Assembly: GCA_965224465.1 (NCBI GenBank)
Contig: OZ245049.1
Span: 2,490,001 to 2,522,000, forward strand
Direction: 5' to 3'
From: Flavobacteriaceae bacterium
GTDB taxonomy: Bacteria > Bacteroidota > Bacteroidia > Flavobacteriales > Flavobacteriaceae
DNA length: 32,000 nucleotides
Shown: piece by piece, positions 3,697-29,136 of the stretch
Layout: the number at the start of each line of letters is the position of its first letter
Numbering within the stretch: the first letter of the stretch is position 1
Notes under the pieces: model-generated
The model's input: the letters and a program-made list of their open reading frames with translations, nothing else
Database searches by the model: none
Told to the model about the DNA's origin: nothing
Translations under genes and position numbers: made by a program

Positions 3697-3720
3697 TTTC
3701 TAATCACATATTTTTAAAAA

Positions 3721-3749
3721 AGCGTATCTGAAAGGATACGCTTTTTTTT
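3721..3749 (+). terminator. Rho-independent terminator after atpG (bidirectional architecture)
   Basis: AGCGTATC (3721-3728) pairs with GATACGCT (3735-3742) around a 6-nt loop, followed by a T8 run and preceded by A5. Confidence 0.8.
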
Positions 3750-3774
3750 GCATTTAGATTTCGTCAAACCAACA

Positions 3775-3895
3775 GTCATACCAAATACATTTCAAAGTGA
3801 GGGTTTAGAAATGGAATTAATTTTTGTTTTAACTAGGCGAAAAACATAAGGATAGCCTTCGCTATCGTTCTGTGTTTTAACAACGTTAAAACAAA
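3775..3895 (+). repeat. Dispersed structured repeat, copy A (orientation defined as +)
   Basis: Aligns by eye to the reverse complement of copies C and D: GTCATACCAAATACATTTCAAAGTGAGGGTTTAGAAATGGAATTA...AACTAGGCGAAAAA...GGATAGCCTTCGCTATCGTTCTGTGTTTTAACAACG. It contains the CATTTC...GAAATG hairpin and the GATAGC-CTTC-GCTATC hairpin. The tail up to about 3937 is diverged. Confidence 0.7.
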
Positions 3896-4000
3896 AGAAG
3901 TACTGAAGCAGCCTAAGGTATTTCACCTGGATACTATAAAATGAAGTACCTAAAACACGCCATTACATAAAACATGTTTTTTTATTCTCTCCAAGTTTGT

Positions 4001-4008: not shown

Positions 4009-4059
4009 AATACAACAATATGGCATAATAAATGCCACTAGTACCCATAAAAAATACCT

Positions 4060-4539
4060 ATGAAAAATATAAAAACCATCAGTTTAATTCTTGTATTACC
4101 TATCGTTTTAATCAGCTTTGCACAATGTGCTAGCAACAAACCTTACAAACTTCAAAAAACAGCTCCGTTTACCGTAAAACAAGCGGTTAGCCAAGTTTAC
4201 TTAGGAGGACGACAAGGAAACAAAGGAGAGCAGTTAACAATAAGTATAAGCGACAAAAGCATTGTTTTAGACAGTCTGTTTTACAAAAACAGAAAACTTA
4301 AACTGCACCTAAATCAAGAAGGCAACTATACAGCAAAACTCAGATTATCTACCGAGAAACAGCTTACCATGCATGAAAGCCCAATAGAAGAATACGGGAA
4401 TAAAGCTCCTGTAATAGCTGATAAAATCCCCTTCGACTTAAAAGAAAAAGAAGCTGTAATCAGTTATCTTAAAAACAACAATATATACTATTATAACATA
4501 GGTAATATATCCAAAGGCAAAGTGATTATATATCCATAA
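4060..4539 (+). CDS. Hypothetical lipoprotein
   Basis: 159 aa with an N-terminal signal peptide ending in a lipobox-like SFAQC. I recognise no family. Confidence 0.6.
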   Translation: MKNIKTISLILVLPIVLISFAQCASNKPYKLQKTAPFTVKQAVSQVYLGGRQGNKGEQLTISISDKSIVLDSLFYKNRKLKLHLNQEGNYTAKLRLSTEKQLTMHESPIEEYGNKAPVIADKIPFDLKEKEAVISYLKNNNIYYYNIGNISKGKVIIYP

Positions 4540-7197: not shown

Positions 7198-9309
7198 ATG
7201 TCACATACCTCGCCTCTTAAAGTGGCTTTAGTAGGAAACCCTAACACTGGAAAAACATCTTTATTTAACCAGTTAACGGGACTCAATCAAAAAGTAGGAA
7301 ATTACCCTGGAATTACAGTAGACAGAAAACAAGGGAGCTGCAAATTAGACCTGGAGCATGCTGCAATCATCACAGATTTACCAGGAACCTATAGCATTAA
7401 CCCAACATCATTAGATGAAACCATAGTACTAGAAACCTTACTAGACAACTCTAATGACTCCTATCCTGATGCCATTATAGTAGTCGCAGAAATAGAAAAC
7501 TTAAAAAGAAACCTCTTACTATTTTCGCAAATAAAGGAATTAAAAATACCTAGTATTTTGGTTATAAATATGGCCGATCAACTAGAGAAAAAAGGAATAT
7601 CCATAGATATTGAAGCTTTAAAGAAGGAGTTAAAAACAGACGTTCTTTTAATTAGTGCTCGTAAAAAAGAGGGATTAGAAGCTTTAAAAAAAGCATTAAT
7701 CAACTACAAAACATGGGACAAAGCTCCCTTATTAAACATCTCAGAAAAAATAGATGCCGTTTTTTTTAATGAGATATCAGAAAAATTCACAGAAATTCCT
7801 TTTTACAAAGCATGGTTATTTATCACCCAACAAAACTATTGCCCATTTCTATCTCAAGAAATGCACAAACGTATCGATGAAATAAAAAGGAAAAATAGTA
7901 CCATAAAACAATTACAACATAAAGAAACCATATATCGCTATCAAAAGATAAACGAGATACTAAAAAAAACATACCAAGTAGACAAATCTAAGGCTACTGG
8001 AATCAGGGCTACTCTAGACAAAGTTTTAACACATCACATATTCGGATATGTGATATTTACCGCTATCTTATTCTTAATATTTCAATCTATTTTTGACTGG
8101 GCAAGCATCCCTATGGATTTTATAGATCAATTGTTTGCAGATATTAGCTCCTATGCAAAAACCAATTTACCAGACGGAGTATTTACCAATCTAATTACAG
8201 AGGGTATCATCCCTGGTATTGGAGGTGTGGTCATATTTATCCCTCAAATTGCCATCTTGTTTTTATTTATTGCCACTTTAGAAGAAACAGGTTACATGAG
8301 TCGTGTTGTTTTTCTGATGGATAAAATTATGCGCCGTTTTGGAATGAGTGGAAAGAGCGTTATTCCACTAATATCCGGAACTGCCTGTTCCATTCCCGCC
8401 ATCATGGCAGCTAGAAACATCAGTGGATGGAAAGAACGGTTGATTACTATTTTAGTAACACCATTTACCACCTGTTCTGCAAGAATACCAGTATATGCCA
8501 TCATAATTTCTCTAATTATTCCTGACGAAAAAGTACTGGGAATATTTAATTTACAAGGACTCACCTTATTTGCTTTATATGTCTTAGGATTTGCATCGGC
8601 CATCTTATCTGCTATGATATTAAACCGGATCTTAAAAACAAAACAACGCTCGTTTTTTATCATAGAAATGCCGAGCTACAAAATCCCGTCCATTAAAAAT
8701 CTATTCTTTACAGTACTAGAAAAAACAAAAGCATTTGTGTTTGGAGCTGGTAAAATTATCTTGGCACTCTCCATAGTATTATGGTTTTTAGCCTCTAGTG
8801 GCCCTAAAGCATATAAAAACGCCGAAACCACCGTGCGTGCTCAAGTTCAAAACCAACAACTGACGGAAGAAGAATTGGCACATGAAATAGCCTCTTTCAA
8901 ACTGGAGAATTCCTATATTGGTATCATGGGAAAAGCAATAGAACCAGCAATTAGACCTTTAGGTTACGATTGGAAAATAGGAATTGCGTTAATCAGTTCT
9001 TTTGCCGCTCGTGAAGTGTTTGTTGGAACCCTAGCAACCATTTACAGTGTAGGAGATGACGGAGAAGATACCGCAACAATAAAACAACGAATGCGTGCCG
9101 AAATAAACCCTATAACAGGAGAAAAACAATTCAATTTGGCATCTGGAATGTCCTTAATGATGTACTATGTATTTGCCATGCAATGCATCGGAACACTCGC
9201 CATTGTAAAAAGAGAAACCAACAGTTGGAAATGGCCTATATTACAAGTAGTCGGAATGGGAATACTTGCCTATGTATCAGCCATGCTTACCTATTTAATT
9301 TTAAGCTAA
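7198..9309 (+). CDS. feoB: Ferrous iron transporter B
   Basis: 703 aa with an N-terminal G-domain (GNPNTGKTS, DLPGTYS, NMAD) and a polytopic C-terminal permease. Confidence 0.95.
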   Translation: MSHTSPLKVALVGNPNTGKTSLFNQLTGLNQKVGNYPGITVDRKQGSCKLDLEHAAIITDLPGTYSINPTSLDETIVLETLLDNSNDSYPDAIIVVAEIENLKRNLLLFSQIKELKIPSILVINMADQLEKKGISIDIEALKKELKTDVLLISARKKEGLEALKKALINYKTWDKAPLLNISEKIDAVFFNEISEKFTEIPFYKAWLFITQQNYCPFLSQEMHKRIDEIKRKNSTIKQLQHKETIYRYQKINEILKKTYQVDKSKATGIRATLDKVLTHHIFGYVIFTAILFLIFQSIFDWASIPMDFIDQLFADISSYAKTNLPDGVFTNLITEGIIPGIGGVVIFIPQIAILFLFIATLEETGYMSRVVFLMDKIMRRFGMSGKSVIPLISGTACSIPAIMAARNISGWKERLITILVTPFTTCSARIPVYAIIISLIIPDEKVLGIFNLQGLTLFALYVLGFASAILSAMILNRILKTKQRSFFIIEMPSYKIPSIKNLFFTVLEKTKAFVFGAGKIILALSIVLWFLASSGPKAYKNAETTVRAQVQNQQLTEEELAHEIASFKLENSYIGIMGKAIEPAIRPLGYDWKIGIALISSFAAREVFVGTLATIYSVGDDGEDTATIKQRMRAEINPITGEKQFNLASGMSLMMYYVFAMQCIGTLAIVKRETNSWKWPILQVVGMGILAYVSAMLTYLILS

Positions 9310-9422
9310 TGCAGGAAATACTCACCTATATCGCATTGGCACTAGCACTCGGATTTTTAGTAAAAAAATACATTATAAAAACTAAAAAGAAAGGGAATTG
9401 TGATGATGATTGTGGTTGCTAA
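9309..9422 (+). CDS. FeoB-associated Cys-rich membrane microprotein
   Basis: 37 aa: one TM helix (ILTYIALALALGFLV), a Lys-rich linker, and a C-terminal CDDDCGC. Its ATG overlaps the feoB stop (TAATG at 9307-9311). The track ORF 9183-9422 is this frame extended back into feoB. Confidence 0.65.
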   Translation: MQEILTYIALALALGFLVKKYIIKTKKKGNCDDDCGC

Positions 9423-9476: not shown

Positions 9477-9641
9477 TTTCACCAAACACATTTCCTATAC
9501 ACGTTTCCTATACACGTTTTAGCAATGTAATTATTATTTATTTTATCTAGACAAAAATGAATAGATAGCCATAACTATCGTCCTGTTTTGAAAGAACGCT
9601 AGAACATAAAACAACCTTTTTATATAGGTTGTTTTTGATAG
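9477..9641 (+). repeat. Dispersed structured repeat, copy B (full length, contains an internal 13-bp tandem duplication)
   Basis: TTTCACCAAACACATTTCC...TTTTAGCAATG...TCTAGACAAAAATGAATAGATAGCCATAACTATCGTCCTG...TTTATATAGGTTGTTTTTGA aligns with copy A and with the reverse complement of copy D, including the tail (D reverse complement: TTTATATCGGTTGTTTTGGA). Confidence 0.6.
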
Positions 9642-10002
9642 AAATTGGTATTTCATGTATTCTTAGAATTCTATATTACATTAATTTGACCTAGGAATAT
9701 CGAATCGTATTGCTCTATTTTTAAGAATAATGTGTAAAAAGGCAAAGAATATCGCAGTTATTCTAAGATTGAATTGCTATTAATCCCCCCTCAATGAAGC
9801 ATTTAAAAAACGACTATCACTATCCCCCTCTTTTTATATAAAAATGTCTTTTTTTTAACAATTTCATAAAGATTATATTCTTTATTACAATTACCCTTAC
9901 TAACACTCACCTTATTACAAGAACACAACTAGCTAACTACCAGCCTATTTACAGGTTATGTTTATTGAATCTAAATAAGGTTGATTATTGAGATATTAGT
10001 TA

Positions 10003-16460: not shown

Positions 16461-16567
16461 GTCAGACTCCAATAATATAAATTAACATTTTCTAATAATT
16501 ATTACAAATATCGCAACCAAACCGTTTCTGTTTTTAGACGCTGTTTGGGGTGTGAACAGTTGTCTAT

Positions 16568-16595
16568 GCTTCTTTTTTTGTTAAAAAAAAGAAGC
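16568..16595. terminator. A/T-rich 12-bp hairpin between the convergent PepSY and XRE genes
   Basis: GCTTCTTTTTTT pairs with AAAAAAAGAAGC around a 3-4 nt loop, 108 nt after the PepSY stop. Terminator function is plausible but there is no separate T-tail. Confidence 0.4.
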
Positions 16596-16882
16596 TGCAC
16601 TGTTAATAGTGTTACTAACTAATGTTGATGATTACTAATAAGTTTTGACGAAATTTATGATAACATCACAATAAATAAACTATTTGAAAGTAACTATTAA
16701 AAAACAGTACAAGCCCTGTTAGTTACGACGAAAACATAGAAAGGCATACTGGTTATCTTCAGATATATCAATACCATTCCATTTTTAAGAATGCAAGAAG
16801 AAGTTTTTAATATCAACATCAGCCAAGGAGATACCCGTTATCTATAAACCAAAATAGGTCCTTCTTTTTTTTATAAGATATG

Positions 16883-17236
16883 TCAATCCAAATTTTGAAA
16901 ATCTTTTGCTTGTCTTTCTAATACCGCAATAAGTCTATCTTTTTCTTTGAGCTGTTTTTTAAATTGTAGAACCAATTCTCTTGATAAATAAGCTTCAGGT
17001 AATACGTTGCTATTTGATGTCCCCCCTAAAAGAGAGTCCTTTGTTTGATTTGGGCAGAACTTACAGAGATTAAAACGTAAAAACTTACAGATTAGCACTA
17101 ATTTTTCGAAAGAAATTTTAGTTTTTCCATTTTCAATATTTGAATACGTTTTTTGAGTAATATTTAAGAAATCTGCCATTTCTTGTTGTGTGATTTTTTT
17201 ACTCACTCTTTTTGTTTTTAATGCAAGTCCTAACAT
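16883..17236 (-). CDS. XRE-family helix-turn-helix transcriptional regulator
   Basis: 117 aa with the HTH ITQQEMADFLNITQKTYSNIENGKTKISFEKL and a coiled C-terminal tail. Confidence 0.8.
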   Translation of the reverse strand: MLGLALKTKRVSKKITQQEMADFLNITQKTYSNIENGKTKISFEKLVLICKFLRFNLCKFCPNQTKDSLLGGTSNSNVLPEAYLSRELVLQFKKQLKEKDRLIAVLERQAKDFQNLD

Positions 17237-17253
17237 AATAATTCTTTTAATAA

Positions 17254-17406
17254 CTAAAATCCAAAATGACCGATATAAATAGTTTTTTTTACGTTCTAGT
17301 GTTGTTAAAAAACAGCACGATAGCTATGGCTATACTTAGATTTTTTTACCTAACTAAAATATAATTCCATTTCTAAACCGTCACTTAGAAATTCAATTGG
17401 TATAAC
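17254..17406 (-). repeat. Dispersed structured repeat, copy C
   Basis: Roughly 80% identical by eye to copy D over ~150 bp. It has an 8-bp hairpin ATTTCTAA-N8-TTAGAAAT and an ATAGC-TATG-GCTAT hairpin. It ends 17 nt upstream of the XRE start codon. Confidence 0.8.
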
Positions 17407-17431
17407 AAACTAAAAAATGCATATTATAAAC

Positions 17432-17666
17432 CTCAACAAACAATTTCTTATCAAGATAACCACTTGGTTTTAAAACTAAAAAAACAAAGCACAAAATATA
17501 CTACAGTACGAAGATATCGCAAAATCTCAAGAGATAAAAAGGAATTTTAATAAGATTTACTTATTCAGAATATATACAAACATATCTAATTATTTTGAGA
17601 TGCTATAGCCTGAAAAACAAGTTAAGTTGGTGTAAAAAAAGTAAATTGTTAATGCTGAAATTTGAG
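17432..17666 (+). mobile_element. Degenerate deletion remnant of an IS related to the intact IS at 18447-20018
   Basis: 17449-17640 aligns with the 5' UTR and first ~55 codons of the intact transposase gene (YEDIAKSQEIKRNFNKIYL vs EHEDITKTQEIKGKFNKIWL) but contains stops. GCTGAAATTTGAG (17654-17666) resembles the IS terminal repeat GCGAAACTTGAG. Confidence 0.6.
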
Positions 17667-17800
17667 CTTTAATCAACTATAAGGGAGCGATGGGGATTCT
17701 TTGTATTACTGGTATAATAAGACTATTTACGCAAACGTATTCTCAGCCCCAGAAAGCATAACTTATTCCATAGTATCAATACTTATAAAACAACTATTTT

Positions 17801-17914
17801 GGGCGTTCCCCAAGGGTCGGGCTATACGCTCATACGCTTCGGTATTTTCAGTTTGGAGTACTACTTCCTCCAACCTAAAAATACCTGCAGGGTAACCGCT
17901 CCTATCCCTAACGC
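17801..17914. repeat. Long imperfect hairpin element with GGGCTAT.CGCT / CCGCTCCTATCCC flanks
   Basis: GGTATTTTCAGTTTGGAG (17841-17858) pairs with CTCCAACCTAAAAATACC (17868-17885) at 16 of 18 positions around a 9-nt loop. It is flanked by GGGCGTTCCCCAAGGGTCGGGCTATACGCTCATACGC and GCAGGGTAACCGCTCCTATCCCTAACGC. The two overlapping track ORFs here (17701-17895 + and 17763-17963 -) look spurious. Confidence 0.5.
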
Positions 17915-18249
17915 AAATGAGTATTGAGATGTTAGAATGGAGAGACAAGAAAAAATGTAACATACATAAATGTCCCTAATGTAAATAACCAACAATATTC
18001 AGGAAACGTCCTAACAAACAGCAATCAATACCACAAACCGATGCATAGGAAAGAACATAAAAGTATATGACCTAAAAAAGTGACATCTATCAAGGTTCGT
18101 TCTCGATAGCCTTTCTATTATTAAATGCGCTCACCGTTTTTATAGATTTTAAAGATAACAAAACTCTCACAGCTGCAAGAGAACTCACTCTTTCCTTTAT
18201 AACAGTTCCGTTTTAGGTAACTATTTAGATAAAATTGATCTTTTAAAAC

Positions 18250-18364
18250 GGCACAAGTTGAACGGATTTAGTTTTTTATCTATTAACTAAGTGGCACAAG
18301 TTGACGATAATCACTGGCACTAACCGACCGTAATTGCTGGCACAAATAGAACTGTGGTAGCCAC
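18250..18364 (+). repeat. TGGCAC iteron-like array
   Basis: GGCACAAGTTGA occurs at 18250-18261 and again at 18293-18304. Three consecutive 23-nt units each start with (G/C)TGGCAC, at 18291, 18314 and 18337. The array ends in the palindrome GTGG-TAG-CCAC (18354-18364). Confidence 0.5.
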
Positions 18365-18446
18365 TTTAAGTTTATAAAAATCTAACTTTACACCCAAGGA
18401 CTTAAAACCCATTGCTTCTGCTGCATCACTTAATTTTATTAAATTA

Positions 18447-20018
18447 CTCAAGTTTCGCACTTAGATAGATTTACGCAACCTCTTGATAGTTAAGCTTGTG
18501 GATATTCACTAGGAATCCAAAATCTTCAATATTCGCTATTATTTTACGTGTAACCATTTCAACATCAATAGATTCAATCATCTTTTCCAAAATGTCAATC
18601 ACCAAGCTGATAACTGCTAATATCCTGATGTTTAGCTTATTCTCTATATAATCTTGTTTTAAATCTTTAAACAAGCCTCCTATAGTTTCGTAGGCTTCCA
18701 TTCTATATCGAATACTGGTGAGTAAATATTGAACCATTATAATGCTTATTTGTGCGATTTGAATATCGAAATTAGTAGACTGACATTTTCCAAGACCAAA
18801 CAACTGCTTAGCTTCTTTAAAAAACACTTCTATGGACCATCTGATACTGTATATTTCAATAGCCTTTACAAATTTCAGTGTTGTATCCGTTGATATTAAC
18901 GTGTGCCATTTGCCATTCTTTCCACCTTTTGAAATAAATACAGCAACCTTAAGACCATCAATTTCAGTTATGTAATGATGGTAGTAATAATTGAATTTAC
19001 GGCATCGTTTTGGTTTTATTTTCTGTTTTTTGAGTTGTGACAACGTTTTTATCTTTGATCGAACTTCAATCTTACTGTTGTATTTATACATCCCAATAAT
19101 ATGAGTTGAACTACTAATGTTCCGTAGCTTTCTAAGTAATTTAACACTTGTAAACCAGGTATCTATTAAGATGTAATCTATGGGGATTTTACGTTTTACA
19201 AGCCTTGAGAACATTTGAACTAGCAGGTCTGTTTTCTTTTTATTGAGTTCCTGATACCTCTTTGCTGCAATTGTTTTACTACATCTTGGAGTTTTCTTTT
19301 GAAGCCTACGTTGCTTCGCCGTTAGACCGTATTTTAATTTTGATGTTTTACTTTCACGATGCAAACTAAAGTCAACAGGGATAAATACACTTCCATTCCA
19401 ATAACCAGCTACAAGTAGCTTAAAGCCTAGGTAATACGTTTTTGACACATGGTTGTATATTTTTGAAACACCTTCAATTGTCTTTCCTGTTTTAGAAAGA
19501 TCAGTATCGTCAAAGATCAAGCACTTTGTAGCGTCTTGAGATGGAGTAAAGAACTCTTCTTTTAATAGATATTGCTTCACAAACTGAGCTAGAAAAACCC
19601 TCCAATTTATCTTTTGATTTGCTAGGATTCGATAGTATGAATCTTTACCCGACTGACCTAATCCCTTGTCTTTACTACTTGTAAGTCCATGAATAGAATC
19701 AAATCCGATAATAGGTAAAATTAAAAGTGTAGAGATTAAATTACCGAATGAAATCCCCGATTTCTTACACCAACTAAACTTGTTTTTAATTTTATTGAAT
19801 CCTAAAATATTTAGATGTGCTTGTAGGTATTCTGAACTAAGCCAAATCTTATTAAATTTTCCTTTTATCTCCTGTGTTTTTGTGATATCTTCGTGTTCTA
19901 GCATGTTTTGTACTTTCTTGTTCGTACTTAAAAGTACAATAAAACCAGGGGATTACCTTGGTTTTCATGCTATTTATTTTTACTTAAACACCTGTAAATG
20001 ATGGGTGCGAAACTTGAG
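18447..20018 (-). mobile_element. Intact IS4-family insertion sequence (~1.57 kb)
   Basis: Perfect 14-bp terminal inverted repeats: CTCAAGTTTCGCAC (18447-18460) and GTGCGAAACTTGAG (20005-20018). Flanked by the direct repeat TTAAATTA (18439-18446 and 20019-20026), which could be read as 10 bp TTAAATTACT with 12-bp inverted repeats. It carries a single transposase ORF. Confidence 0.85.
18471..19904 (-). CDS. IS4-family DDE transposase
   Basis: 477 aa. YSIRWSIEVFFKEAK fits the IS4 signature Y-(2)-R-(3)-E-(6)-K exactly. Candidate catalytic Asp regions are LIFDDTD and ILIDTWF. Confidence 0.85.
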   Translation of the reverse strand: MLEHEDITKTQEIKGKFNKIWLSSEYLQAHLNILGFNKIKNKFSWCKKSGISFGNLISTLLILPIIGFDSIHGLTSSKDKGLGQSGKDSYYRILANQKINWRVFLAQFVKQYLLKEEFFTPSQDATKCLIFDDTDLSKTGKTIEGVSKIYNHVSKTYYLGFKLLVAGYWNGSVFIPVDFSLHRESKTSKLKYGLTAKQRRLQKKTPRCSKTIAAKRYQELNKKKTDLLVQMFSRLVKRKIPIDYILIDTWFTSVKLLRKLRNISSSTHIIGMYKYNSKIEVRSKIKTLSQLKKQKIKPKRCRKFNYYYHHYITEIDGLKVAVFISKGGKNGKWHTLISTDTTLKFVKAIEIYSIRWSIEVFFKEAKQLFGLGKCQSTNFDIQIAQISIIMVQYLLTSIRYRMEAYETIGGLFKDLKQDYIENKLNIRILAVISLVIDILEKMIESIDVEMVTRKIIANIEDFGFLVNIHKLNYQEVA

Positions 20019-20103
20019 TTAAATTACTACCAACGCTAGTGGATGCACACAAGTCTCTGATGTCTTGTAAAGTAATTGGTTTGCCATAATGTTTGGATAT
20101 TCT

Positions 20104-20259
20104 ACTAATTACAATCCAAAACAACCGATATAAATAGTTTATTTTACGTTCTTACATCATTAAGAAACAGAACGATAGCTAGGCGATCCATCCATTTTTC
20201 GCCTAGCTAAAATATAATTTCATTTCTAAAACGTCATTTAGAAATATAGTTGGTATTAC
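20104..20259 (-). repeat. Dispersed structured repeat, copy D (best preserved)
   Basis: ACTAATTACAATCCAAAACAACCGATATAAATAG...AACAGAACGATAGCTAGGCG...CGCCTAGCTAAAATATAATTTCATTTCTAAAACGTCATTTAGAAATATAGTTGGTATTAC. It has a perfect 9-bp hairpin ATTTCTAAA-N6-TTTAGAAAT and a perfect 9-bp stem AGCTAGGCG...CGCCTAGCT. It lies 109 nt downstream of the TlpA-like gene stop, in the same orientation. Confidence 0.8.
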
Positions 20260-20368
20260 TGATTATTTTAATTTCTAAGTCTTTTTAATACACCCGAGTT
20301 TTACTATATCTTTTGCTGAAAAATAGTATTCGTTATTTATAGCCTTTATTTTTTATTAATGGTTACGT

Positions 20369-21520
20369 TTATAAACGAACCAAACTATCAATTCTTTTTT
20401 CCAAAAGACCTATATCAACGCTACCTGAAATCGATTTGTAAATTCTGCCCTTCTTGTCAATTAAAACAAAATCTGGTATTTCTTGAATGTCATATTTTAA
20501 AGCTACATCGTCGTTGACTCCTTCTAAATTTGATAAACTCACCCAATTTATTTTATCTTTTTCCACCATTTTTCTCCATCTTTTTTCACTTCTATCTAAG
20601 GAGTAATTTATTACTAGAAAGTCCTTTTTATCAAATTTATTTATGAATTTTGGAATCACATTTCTGCTAAATTCACGACAGGAAGCACACCAAGAAGCTC
20701 CAAAATCAAGTAGAATAACCTTTCCTTCAAAATCTGACAAACGAACGATTTTCCCATCTAAGTCCTTTGCTTCAAAATCTGTAAATAAGTCTCCATTTTT
20801 TAGTTTTTTATAGGTTAGATATTTTTTTAGTTTTTGTCCGTTAACCGATCTTTTAAATTGAGGATTCAAACGTTCATAGAATAATTTGAAACTATCAATT
20901 GGTATTCCATTTTTTTTGTGACTGAGAACTGTTATTATGGAATGATCCTGGTTCGGATTGTTAAATACGAAACTCCAATGTTGTTTTTTCTTTAAGTTTG
21001 CAAATTTTTCATAGACTTTATTTATGTCTTCTTTTACCTTGCTATTTTTCACAGCTTCGTTCTTATAGAATTTATTGCATTCGAACATCATTTTTATTTT
21101 GGCATCAAACGCAACCTTATTTACGATATCGTTTATCTGAGAACCTTCTATTTCACTGTTCTCAAAGTCATTAAAGCTTCCCGTGATTGCAATATTGGCG
21201 TTTTCTAACCAAAAACTCATACCATGTTCTAGGAATTGATTCGTTTTTGGGTTTCTAAATCCGATTGCAATTAATAAAGGCTTATCAATTTTTCCTTTAA
21301 GAATAAATGTCCCGTTTTTTGTATAAGTTGAATCAATAAAAAGAAACTTTTCATTTTTGTGTTGGTTTCGATCAACAATGTAAACTTTAAGGCTATCGGG
21401 AAGGGAACTGATAGTCGCATTAATAGTATACCCGTTAACAAGATTTTCAGTGTTTATTTGTCTGTTTTTTTTACAGGATGTAATTGAAATAAAAAAAAGA
21501 AGTATAAAAATATTTTTCAT
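20369..21520 (-). CDS. TlpA/AhpC-like thiol-disulfide oxidoreductase lipoprotein
   Basis: 383 aa with lipoprotein signal FFISITSC and a C-terminal thioredoxin fold with active site WCASC. Confidence 0.8.
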   Translation of the reverse strand: MKNIFILLFFISITSCKKNRQINTENLVNGYTINATISSLPDSLKVYIVDRNQHKNEKFLFIDSTYTKNGTFILKGKIDKPLLIAIGFRNPKTNQFLEHGMSFWLENANIAITGSFNDFENSEIEGSQINDIVNKVAFDAKIKMMFECNKFYKNEAVKNSKVKEDINKVYEKFANLKKKQHWSFVFNNPNQDHSIITVLSHKKNGIPIDSFKLFYERLNPQFKRSVNGQKLKKYLTYKKLKNGDLFTDFEAKDLDGKIVRLSDFEGKVILLDFGASWCASCREFSRNVIPKFINKFDKKDFLVINYSLDRSEKRWRKMVEKDKINWVSLSNLEGVNDDVALKYDIQEIPDFVLIDKKGRIYKSISGSVDIGLLEKRIDSLVRL

Positions 21521-21568
21521 ATTATTTGTGTTATTTTTTTAGTTGTGAGGCGTCAAATTGAGCCCTTA

Positions 21569-22172
21569 TTAATCAAAATTATGCACTAGCTTTACAGTAG
21601 GAATACCTATAAAAAAGACAAATCTGCAGCTGTTTGAGCAGCAATCATCTTTGGTTTCACAAACACATCCATTTTTAAAAAGTTCCTCGTGTCGTGCACG
21701 ATTATACCAATTAAAACCAACACCACCTTGACATACACCTGCCCATCATTTCAAGAAAACATCTTTTTTTTTAGTATATTTTAATGATCGTAAAACAAAA
21801 CTTGAGCATCTGTTATTCCTTTCTAGGACATAAAAAAGATTCATCCCATCAATTCCAACTTGCACAAGACAAGAAAATGGTAATTCAGTCAATAACCTAG
21901 GGGCAAGCCCACGAGGCATGAAAAAGAAAAAACCTTAATCATTTCGATGCAAGCATCGGGGAATTAAACCCACTAGTGAGATTAAATTTATCATTTGCTA
22001 TTTTTACTGCTGTATTCTGTATTTTATACAGATTCAGCGTATCCGAAATCGCCAGCAAACTTGAATGGTCTTGGTGAGGTAAAACTTGATCCTTTAAGTA
22101 TTTTGAAGTATGCTTAATTTTTAATGCTTCAATAATTTTTGTGGTAACATTCAGGAAATTGGCTGTTTCCAT
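21569..22172 (-). pseudogene. Frameshifted and truncated remnant of a peptidase-C39-like (VKOR/thioredoxin-associated) gene
   Basis: The 77-aa ORF (21939-22172) looks like only the N-terminal part of a C39-like domain (ALKIKHTSKYLKDQVLPHQDHSSLLAISDTLNLYKIQNTAVKI). The expected continuation (ELPFSCLVQVGIDGMNLFYVLERNN...DVFLK) is in another frame at 21746-21886, and a third piece (WAGVCQ...) is in a further frame down to 21569. The family assignment is from memory. Confidence 0.5.
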
Positions 22173-22481
22173 ATATGTATCAAAATTAAATCACACACAC
22201 TTGCTAATCATCAATCAACAAAGTAACGTATTCAAAGGGGGTTTTGTTTTTTTAATATCACGTATTAACACTAACAATAATAAGCACTTATTTCCAAACA
22301 TCTTGTAAAAATATTACTAAAATTCAGTAACTTATTACGGATTTCAATTGCCTTTGTTTAACTATCCTTAGTAACATTCTTTGTAACCGATCCGTTTCTG
22401 TTTTTCAACTAGGTTATTAATACCATCAAAACAAGATTACTTATTTCAATAACTAAAATCTCATATCCCAATCAATAACCG

Positions 22482-22489
22482 TACTTTTG
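22482..22489 (+). promoter_or_regulatory. Candidate -7 box (TACTTTTG) for the SseB-like gene
   Basis: TAnnTTTG match 32 nt upstream of ATG 22521. Confidence 0.35.
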
Positions 22490-22520
22490 CAGAAATTGAA
22501 TCCAATACACACGAATCGCC

Positions 22521-23161: not shown

Positions 23162-23265
23162 TTTACACCAAATACATTTCCAAGTGACAGTTTTGAAATG
23201 GAATTAGTTCCCACAAGCTACCTGTTAAAAACAAGTTACCATAAAAGGCTATGCTATTAGAACTT
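23162..23265 (+). repeat. Dispersed structured repeat, copy E (diverged 3' half)
   Basis: TTTACACCAAATACATTTCCAAGTGACAGTTTTGAAATGGAATTAG matches the first ~45 nt of copy A closely, and the later AAGGCTATGCTATTAGAAC matches weakly. It starts 2 nt after the SseB-like stop codon. Confidence 0.6.
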
Positions 23266-24286: not shown

Positions 24287-24958
24287 CTATTTTTTTACAT
24301 ATAAATTTTTTGATATTTGGTAAGAAACCGTTGTTACATTTTTATCAATTTCTATTTGCATAGACTGATCAAATTCCTCTAATGACAAGATTTTTATAGT
24401 GTTTCCCAAGCGAATATTAGCATTGTCCAAAAACTTTAAAAACGAGGAAGAAGAGTCCTTTACCCCTATTACAATACAGGATGCATTTACTGCTACGGAA
24501 GACAACATCACATTTTTATGATGTTTAATAACTCCGTCTTTGTCTGGAATAGGATCTCCATGAGGATCATAACTAGGAAAATTCAAAAACTGATCCAACC
24601 TATCCACAAGACTGTCTGATTTTACATGCTCCATCTGTTCTGCAATATCATGAACTTCATCCCAATTAAAATCTAATGTATCAACTAAAAAACACTCCCA
24701 CAACCGATGACTTCTCAAGGTACTTACAGCAATTGCCACGCCCTTGGAAGTTAATAATGTCCCCTTGTACTTCTTGTGTTCTACCAAGCCTTTTTCTGAT
24801 AACTTCTTAATCATATCTGTGACAGAAGAGGCTTTGGTATTCATTTTCGAAGCAATCTGATTTGTATTCACACTTTTACCAGTGTCAATTCCAACACTAT
24901 AAATAGCTTTTAAATAATTTTCTTCGGCTTGTGATAATTCTGATTTCATATACTGCAA
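24287..24958 (-). CDS. DtxR/MntR-family metal-dependent transcriptional regulator with a C-terminal FeoA-like domain
   Basis: 223 aa with N-terminal AEENYLKAIY...wHTH, a central metal-binding/dimerisation region (HRLWECFL...EVHDIAEQMEH), and a C-terminal SH3/FeoA-like domain. The start could be 24958 or 24949. Confidence 0.85.
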   Translation of the reverse strand: MQYMKSELSQAEENYLKAIYSVGIDTGKSVNTNQIASKMNTKASSVTDMIKKLSEKGLVEHKKYKGTLLTSKGVAIAVSTLRSHRLWECFLVDTLDFNWDEVHDIAEQMEHVKSDSLVDRLDQFLNFPSYDPHGDPIPDKDGVIKHHKNVMLSSVAVNASCIVIGVKDSSSSFLKFLDNANIRLGNTIKILSLEEFDQSMQIEIDKNVTTVSYQISKNLYVKK

Positions 24959-29016: not shown

Positions 29017-29059
29017 CTTGTATCCAAACACAGAAACACATTTCCCGCTCCTAAACATC

Positions 29060-29136
29060 ACCAATTACAATCCAAAAATTATGGATATAAATAGTCTATT
29101 TCCCAAACCATCATTTGGAAATTTAATCGGCATAAC
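29060..29136 (-). repeat. Dispersed structured repeat, copy F (short internal-deletion derivative)
   Basis: ACCAATTACAATCCAAAAATTATGGATATAAATAGTCTATTT is joined directly to CCCAAACCATCATTTGGAAATTTAATCGGCATAAC. Both ends of copies C and D are present, but the central ~80 bp is missing. It lies 35 nt downstream of the GH5 stop, in the same orientation. Confidence 0.6.

Follow-up and report, generated by a model that had tools for sequence, protein, structure and literature searches.

A ~160-bp intergenic repeat of a Flavobacteriaceae lineage, very probably a transposable element of the miniature inverted-repeat (MITE) type that duplicates TTA or TAA

The MITEs of prokaryotes (miniature transposable elements with inverted repeats) measure ~50-800 bp, and thousands of them have been predicted in Flavobacterium (PMC11602168). 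A 3-bp TTA/TAA duplication next to inverted ends is the hallmark of the PIF/Harbinger elements, the transposase of which resembles that of bacterial IS5 (PMC2213677). Here, a repeat is described that is found six times in a piece of chromosomal DNA (33.8% G+C) from a Flavobacteriaceae bacterium, contig OZ245049.1, positions 2,490,001 to 2,522,000; the whole of this 32,000-nucleotide stretch is referred to below as the window. An earlier note, made from the letters of the window, had flagged one of the copies and had left the choice between a MITE- or REP-like mobile element and a family of small structured RNAs. The present analysis indicates that the six loci very probably represent a MITE of ~160 bp, a DNA transposon of the non-autonomous kind. 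The first part of the earlier choice is borne out by the inverted ends of the unit, its TTA/TAA duplication, a nested insertion, a filled and empty site and the absence of copies in relatives, whereas neither the REP-like nor the RNA reading was upheld.

Repeat finding within the window recovered the similarities between copies C and D, A and C, A and D, and E and C (lettered as in the list below). When copy C or D was used as the query in a single-sequence nhmmer search, copies A to D were recovered at E = 1e-11 to 1e-21 and copy E at 8e-4 to 0.02, while copy F gave a weak match only. An nhmmer profile of the family was built from 15 aligned copies, taken from the window and from the metagenome-assembled genomes (MAGs) NORP129, NORP150 and NORP167. 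With this profile copies A to D were matched at E = 1e-33 to 1e-38, copy E at 2e-7 and copy F in two weak pieces, all on the strands given before, which confirms that the six loci form one family. No copies beyond these six were found by the profile in the window. Zero matches at E <= 1 were obtained in 20 block-shuffled windows. The identity of ~80% that had been estimated for C and D amounts to 79% in a gapped alignment and to 82-85% in ungapped blocks. All six copies are intergenic:

Copy A, 3779..3903, plus strand: profile match 3777-3903, E = 1e-33, profile positions 2-128
Copy B, 9480..9650, plus strand: profile match 9493-9651, E = 2e-33
Copy C, 17249..17402, minus strand: profile match 17404-17252, E = 1e-38
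Copy D, 20103..20255, minus strand: the flagged locus, profile match 20256-20103, E = 2e-38
Copy E, 23166..23210, plus strand: profile match 23165-23209, profile positions 3-47, E = 2e-7
Copy F, 29059..29132, minus strand: two abutting weak profile pieces, 29134-29101 and 29101-29059, E = 0.04 each

The architecture of the element became apparent from copies outside the window. Loci fetched from other genomes and metagenomes are numbered L002-L033, with coordinates local to each locus. A pattern scan of one genome per species yielded at least 21 loci, the full-length copies coming from the three Flavobacteriaceae MAGs named above. Nine of these loci (in Saccharimonas, Nitrosopumilus, Croceitalea, Flagellimonas and others) showed the pattern without a profile match and were set aside as chance or unrelated hairpins; a scan of metagenomes gave two matches only, with no autonomous element among them. 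In related genomes at least 17 copies with unrelated flanks were found. When copies were aligned together with their flanks, similarity began and ended abruptly, with sharp common ends in 15 copies. The unit thus delimited is ~160 bp long, with TACCAATTACATTTCCAAGTGAC at its 5' end and GTCATTTTGGATTGTAATTGGTA, terminating in ATTGGTA, at its 3' end. The ends of the family (TACCAATTACATTTCC...) stand in inverted orientation: the two terminal sequences pair with each other in a helix of 19 pairs, which is 88.8% paired over the 15 copies. The earlier description of the ends as only weakly inverted does not hold for the preserved copies in relatives, which have long terminal inverted repeats; the weakness is a matter of decay in the window copies.

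Pairing extends over the entire unit, a single imperfect palindrome with 57 pairs; across the 15 copies 88.7% of the cells were paired, against 39-51% when the partners were slid. The copy at L003:5372-5545 folds as a single hairpin (-47.7 kcal/mol, z = -6.1), and in intact copies the reverse strand also matches the profile. The two hairpins claimed for copy D do exist, as stems of 10 and 11 pairs in its fold, and are local pieces, sub-terminal and central, of the one long palindrome. Copies are 159-197 bp in size and derivatives 45-75 bp. The element is non-coding: stop-free runs reach 65 codons at most in any copy and a common frame was not seen, in agreement with the statement that the copies share no open reading frame (ORF).

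A subfamily in NORP167 (L007:4792-4960, L008:2118-2304 and L014:4826-5022) has a 22-23-nt insertion near the 3' third and matching changes at both ends (CCAAATAC with GTATTTGG); the L014 copy contains an additional G+C-rich insertion of 12 nt. On the metagenome contig Ga0209417_1000172 a diverged relative of ~130 bp with similar ends (ATACCGATTAAAC...CACAATTGGTAT) was seen at L024:5852-5983, and beside it, following TAA, a solo 5' end (L024:5828-5850) of which 22 of 23 nt are identical to the consensus. The family, or the recognition sequence of its transposase, thus reaches beyond the North Pond lineage.

The 3 nt outside both ends are directly repeated in 11 of 15 copies (Fisher p = 0.002). 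They read TTA/TTA six times (L003, L013, L021, L018, L015 and L009) and TAA/TAA five times (L008, L030 and three copies in L002); among background 3-mers TTA and TAA together account for 6.2%. Mixed TTA/TAA pairs did not occur among these copies. This implies that the flanks are not an extension of the inverted repeat, which would have put TTA at one flank and TAA at the opposite one. The element inserts at TTA or TAA and duplicates that trinucleotide. In the window the duplications are eroded: TTA adjoins the 5' end of copies C (17403-17405), E (23163-23165) and F (29133-29135); copy D has TAA at its 5' side (20256-20258, element strand) and GAA at its 3' side (20100-20102); and copy B is flanked by TTT (9477-9479) and TTT (9651-9653). 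The 3 nt ahead of the 5' end of copy A are TCA (3776-3778).

A REP/BIME-like element spread by a RAYT (IS200/IS605-like) tyrosine transposase, or a Correia/RUP-like MITE moved by an IS630/mariner-type enzyme that duplicates TA, would also account for a palindromic, intergenic and multicopy repeat such as is found in those families. A TA duplication does not fit the flanks, however: what is repeated is TWA, lying outside the end's symmetric TA, and its W recurs as a direct, not as an inverted, repeat. REPs are palindromes of 20-40 nt that lack terminal inverted repeats and target duplications, whereas the present unit of ~160 bp has both inverted ends and duplications. Furthermore, no RAYT-like gene was seen among the window ORFs scanned against Pfam and NCBIfam. 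These explanations therefore deserve next to no credence.

Movement of the MITE has left direct traces in relatives. In L002 a full copy (5245-5082, minus strand) lies within another copy and is bounded by TAA/TAA; excision of the nested copy together with one TAA restores the outer copy to consensus length and register. The same locus contains a 57-bp derivative (4305-4367) that comprises little beyond the two ends and has a TAA/TAA of its own, which suggests that movement requires no more than the two ends. A short derivative that likewise retains little beyond its two ends is present at L010:6806-6850, and window copy F is the third of this kind. A filled site was found in L030, where a diverged copy (4036-4205, E = 2e-16) lies between rseP and SCO1 with TAA/TAA flanks. 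L029, L028, L026 and the window are the corresponding empty sites: they align across the gap with a single TAA (GTATTAG-TAA-TAWT).

The window copies are missing from orthologous positions in syntenic relatives, which were chosen via AtpA (95-97% identical) and a TonB receptor (85-86% identical). Copy A is absent from the spacer between atpG and the 159-aa ORF in L026, L027 and L028, copy B from the spacer after feoB in L031, copy E from between the SseB-like and ZIP genes in L029, L031, L032 and L033, and copy F from downstream of panE in L031 and L032. Copies C and D are part of a ~6-kb segment (16461-22520) that is missing from L031 and L032, in which the distance from the PepSY_TM gene to the SseB-like gene is 183 bp. 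Its contents are an Xre-type helix-turn-helix (HTH) gene, copy C, an IS4 element, copy D, a gene for a TlpA-like thioredoxin and 1 kb (21521-22520) in which no ORF exceeds 77 aa and Pfam gave no match; the segment looks like an acquired or rearranged island. In its 32 kb the window contains six copies, whereas the loci of relatives, which cover portions of this region, contain 0-2.

If the copies belonged to a family of small structured RNAs (trans-acting small RNAs, 3'-untranslated-region or cis-regulatory elements), they would be paralogous genes, with the hairpins as the working fold of the RNA. It is in keeping with this that single copies fold better than shuffled sequence: besides the L003 copy, copy D with its two stems reaches -38 kcal/mol with z = -3.6, and z = -5.6 on the other strand. 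Moreover, all 17 copies with readable neighbours are situated in tandem or convergent spacers, next to the 3' end of a gene, and in each of copies C, D and F a change on one side removes a mismatch from the first hairpin. The two strands, however, fold to the same degree, as a palindrome in DNA would. None of the copies matched any of the 4227 Rfam models, either at the gathering score or at E <= 5. RNAalifold gave 22 mostly invariant pairs, only 1/22 with a double change, and a covariation term of +0.16 kcal/mol. For the long hairpin, covariation did not exceed that of shuffles, 44/500 of which reached the score and 123/500 the count of double changes. The -7 box of Bacteroidota type, TAnnTTTG, is not conserved on either strand of the copies, and copies C, D and E contain no terminator-like sites. 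The stem change in copy F that had been taken for compensatory proved not to be so: the consensus has C opposite A at that position; in copies C and D the change is C to T on one side only, and in copy F it is A to G, likewise on one side, with an extra G besides. Finally, flanking duplications, nesting, absence from orthologous sites and the persistence of truncated and deleted copies weigh against RNA genes. This explanation is considered very improbable.

Two further candidates were dismissed or placed elsewhere. In the 3' end, a candidate outward promoter (TCATTTTG or TTATTTTG) misses TAnnTTTG by one base, the complete box being absent at that position from every copy. A weak match to the Flavo-1 RNA (RF01705), at 17811-17919, scores 23.9 bits where the gathering score is 42 (E = 0.6) and falls within the IS4 element, outside the repeat.

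Several observations weigh against a MITE, or against the type of partner enzyme proposed for it below. The flanks differ in 4 of 15 copies and are TTT/TTT in copy B; both are attributed to decay. At the filled and empty site the flanks are only 85% identical on one side, and the junction is blurred by a few bases. No autonomous partner, that is, matching ends enclosing an ORF, was found when the window and the ~400 kb of loci fetched were searched, nor were unpaired or widely spaced matching ends. Enzymes of the IS30 family also make 2-3-bp duplications. Lastly, two terminal pairs carry double substitutions in three copies each, which could mean selection on the hairpin, though not above shuffles. 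One of these pairs is shared by copy C with L003 and L013. They look like subfamily markers in which both ends have changed together, as is expected if one transposase must recognize both ends, and are not statistical evidence for an RNA.

With respect to preservation, the window copies are inferior to those in the North Pond MAGs. In copy A (86% identity to the family consensus) the centre and the 5' terminal inverted repeat survive, the 3' end being lost or unrecognizably decayed after ~3903; this copy lies between the atpG terminator (3719-3750) and the 159-aa ORF, downstream of the former and upstream of the latter. Copy B, between feoB with its 37-aa FeoB-associated ORF and a TonB-dependent receptor gene, is full length yet the most decayed (77%). 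Its 5' terminal repeat contains a perfect 13-nt tandem duplication (TTTCCTATACACG twice, at 9491-9503 and 9504-9516), which would probably disable that end. Copy C is near full length (87%), lacks ~3 nt of the 3' terminal repeat and lies 13 nt upstream of the Xre-type HTH gene (16883-17236, minus strand). Copy D is full length (85%), but its 3' terminal repeat has decayed to AATTAGTA in place of AATTGGTA, and in its centre a small change has converted the GATAGCC/GCTATC hairpin of the family into the 11-pair stem AGCTAGGCG.../...CGCCTAGCT. Copy E, of which the 5' terminal 45 nt are the recognizable part, begins 7 nt past the stop codon of the SseB-like gene in a convergent spacer that measures 300 bp in the window vs ~150 bp in relatives. 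Copy F, between the convergent panE and GH5 genes, is a 74-bp internal-deletion derivative in which the 5' module is fused to the 3' module (profile positions 2-35 and 121-162).

The divergence of these copies is star-like: they are 77-87% identical to the consensus and 66-79% to one another. This is consistent with copies having spread from masters and decayed independently afterwards; local duplication does not account for it, even in the case of the neighbouring copies C and D. With their eroded ends and flanks the window copies are old and probably no longer mobile.

The position of the copies relative to genes was determined for the 17 that have two readable neighbours. The spacers are tandem in 11 cases, convergent in six and divergent in none; if 1/4 of spacers are assumed to be divergent, the last number has a probability of 0.75^17, or ~0.008. 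The diverged L030 copy, in a divergent spacer, is an exception. This pattern is read as selection against insertions in promoters. Copies are often found 2-13 nt from a stop codon. An apparent bias in orientation (16 of 19 with the upstream gene) was abandoned, as removal of the uninformative convergent spacers leaves 8:3 (binomial p ~0.11). At the insertion site in L030 (4035-4206, compared with L029:4197-4207) the identity between the two loci jumps, exactly there, from 85% on the left to 99% on the right. Either recombination has broken at the repeat, or the MAG assembly has joined a chimera there.

These data bear on the possibility that the MITE has been partly co-opted, the hairpin, co-transcribed with the upstream gene, acting as a 3' structure that stabilizes or attenuates the mRNA, a role also proposed for REP and ERIC, or the palindrome acting as a recombination hotspot. 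The location at gene 3' ends close to stop codons, the strong hairpin of intact copies (-47.7 kcal/mol), the orientation of the upstream gene in 8 of the 11 tandem-spacer copies and the identity switch between L029 and L030 would all agree with such a role. Against it, the 8:3 bias is not significant and convergent spacers say nothing on orientation; purifying selection against promoter insertions explains the avoidance of divergent spacers equally well; the window copies are decaying and not conserved; and the identity switch may be a chimeric MAG join at the repeat. Co-option is thus distinctly improbable. A bolder proposal can be phrased, in which the 57-pair fold-back is kept by selection and copies at gene 3' ends, as RNA or DNA structures, affect mRNA stability or serve as recombination breakpoints; a milder form of it is a bacterial Tourist-like family with an undescribed IS5/PIF-like transposase that would target TTA/TAA strictly in Flavobacteriaceae. 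Hints of a selected fold-back are the two double substitutions that keep the ends complementary and the one-sided changes that close the sub-terminal mismatch, and the breakpoint idea fits the jump from 85% to 99% at the L030 insertion. Overall, we regard this as unlikely.

For a non-autonomous MITE, a transposase supplied in trans would bind both ends of the element. The mobilizing enzyme would be a DDE transposase, most likely of the IS5/PIF-Harbinger type, a suggestion drawn solely from the length and sequence of the TTA/TAA duplication. The IS5 subgroups ISL2, IS1031 and IS427 make duplications of 2-4 bp. That the partner is specifically IS5-like is a tentative assignment, of slightly less than even confidence. 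The sub-terminal and central hairpins would then probably be transposase-binding architecture and not an RNA fold, and the function of the element would most likely be selfish spread, tolerated in spacers beside gene 3' ends.

The only insertion sequence (IS) in the window is a complete element of the IS4 family between copies C and D, at ~17452-19960 (possibly 17412-19985). The transposase gene is on the minus strand (18471-19904); its product scores 387 bits with NF049925 and belongs to a 90%-identity cluster with transposases of Tenacibaculum dicentrarchi and T. finnmarkense. The element has unusually long sub-terminal inverted repeats of ~160 bp, 80% matching, one of the two overlapping the transposase gene's start, and ~830 bp (17640-18470) with no ORF of more than 66 aa, in which the sub-threshold Flavo-1 match is located. 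As a mobilizer of the MITE it was rejected, as no similarity of its ends and sub-terminal repeats to the MITE ends was seen. IS4-family elements make much longer duplications. The IS4 element is a bystander, inserted between two tandem MITE copies.

The gene order of the window is atpFHAG, the 159-aa ORF, rseP, SCO1, feoB and the 37-aa FeoB-associated ORF; TonB receptor, DUF4374 protein, PepSY_TM protein, Xre-type HTH, IS4 element and TlpA-like thioredoxin; SseB-like, ZIP transporter, a 223-aa ORF, a second TonB receptor, a 221-aa ORF, panE and a GH5 glycoside hydrolase. AtpA of the window is 97% identical to that of the Flavobacteriaceae MAG NORP129 and 86-89% to named Lutibacter and Urechidicola proteins. 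The 223-aa ORF (24287-24958) occupies the position of the DtxR-type repressor gene of relatives, and the nearest homologue of the thioredoxin-like gene (L022, 62% identical) is not syntenic. The 37-aa ORF (9309-9422) overlaps the feoB stop and matches PF12669 (FeoB-associated Cys-rich membrane protein) at E = 1e-5, just under the cut-off; it is conserved in L031 and easily missed in annotation. The idea that a 77-aa ORF (21939-22172) is a peptidase C39 remnant was discarded, as the ORF had no Pfam match. Between atpG and the 159-aa ORF the NORP129-type loci L026 (12804-17861) and L027 (3351-8408) contain a 1685-aa gene (IgGFc_binding, FIDD, CHU_C) that is absent from the window and L028, another presence/absence difference at the spacer of copy A. 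Where the window has copy A, L028 (3895-4040) and L026 (12600-12640) have a different, G+C-rich repeated motif (GGCTTCGGCCCCGCTCAGCCACC... and ...TAGCTTCGCTCAGCTACC), so that downstream of atpG there may be another small repeat family.

For annotation, these results mean that the stretches are to be labelled as MITE copies and not as small-RNA genes, riboswitches or regulatory sites. With six copies in 32 kb, the family is likely to cause breaks and chimeric joins when MAGs of this lineage are assembled, and it is a marker of lineage-specific genome expansion. The 3-bp TTA/TAA duplication is a specific, testable pointer to the mobilizing transposase family. Otherwise the element is an ordinary selfish one.

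As in the earlier note, no named family was matched: neither Rfam nor the plasmid and phage collections nor the literature, searched by end sequences, contained this sequence. The one match to a viral contig lies inside a 716-aa ORF and was put down to chance. The Flavo-1 RNA motif (RF01705), also an intergenic hairpin motif of Flavobacteria, was the obvious named candidate, but no copy of this family matches it. The ERIC/IRU and REP/BIME repeats of enterobacteria resemble the present element in their imperfect palindrome, their transcribed or 3' intergenic location and their shortened and lengthened variants, and the size is like that of ERIC, which is ~127 bp. They differ in that clear duplications, a nested insertion and a filled and empty site demonstrate mobility here, and REPs are much shorter.

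The closest likeness is to the prokaryotic MITEs, such as Correia/NEMIS of Neisseria, RUP of Streptococcus and the MITEs of Flavobacterium. With these the present family has in common a small non-coding unit with inverted ends and a short duplication, multicopy intergenic spread, presence/absence differences, internal-deletion derivatives and a fold-back structure. Correia and RUP duplicate TA, and differ in this from the present family with its 3-bp TTA/TAA. Such a 3-bp duplication beside inverted ends is the mark of the PIF/Harbinger elements (PMC2213677), which with the Tourist-like MITEs of eukaryotes and the related bacterial IS5 family make up another close group. No IS5-type transposase gene with the ends of the present family was found in the window or the fetched loci. 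The plant PIF/Harbinger motif G(N)5GTT (PMC2213677) is not in the ends of this family (TACCAATTACA...), and the link is one of insertion signature only. In kind, the element is a standard prokaryotic MITE whose specific family is unnamed among the collections searched, and its notable points are the strict Tourist-like TTA/TAA duplication and the local density of copies.

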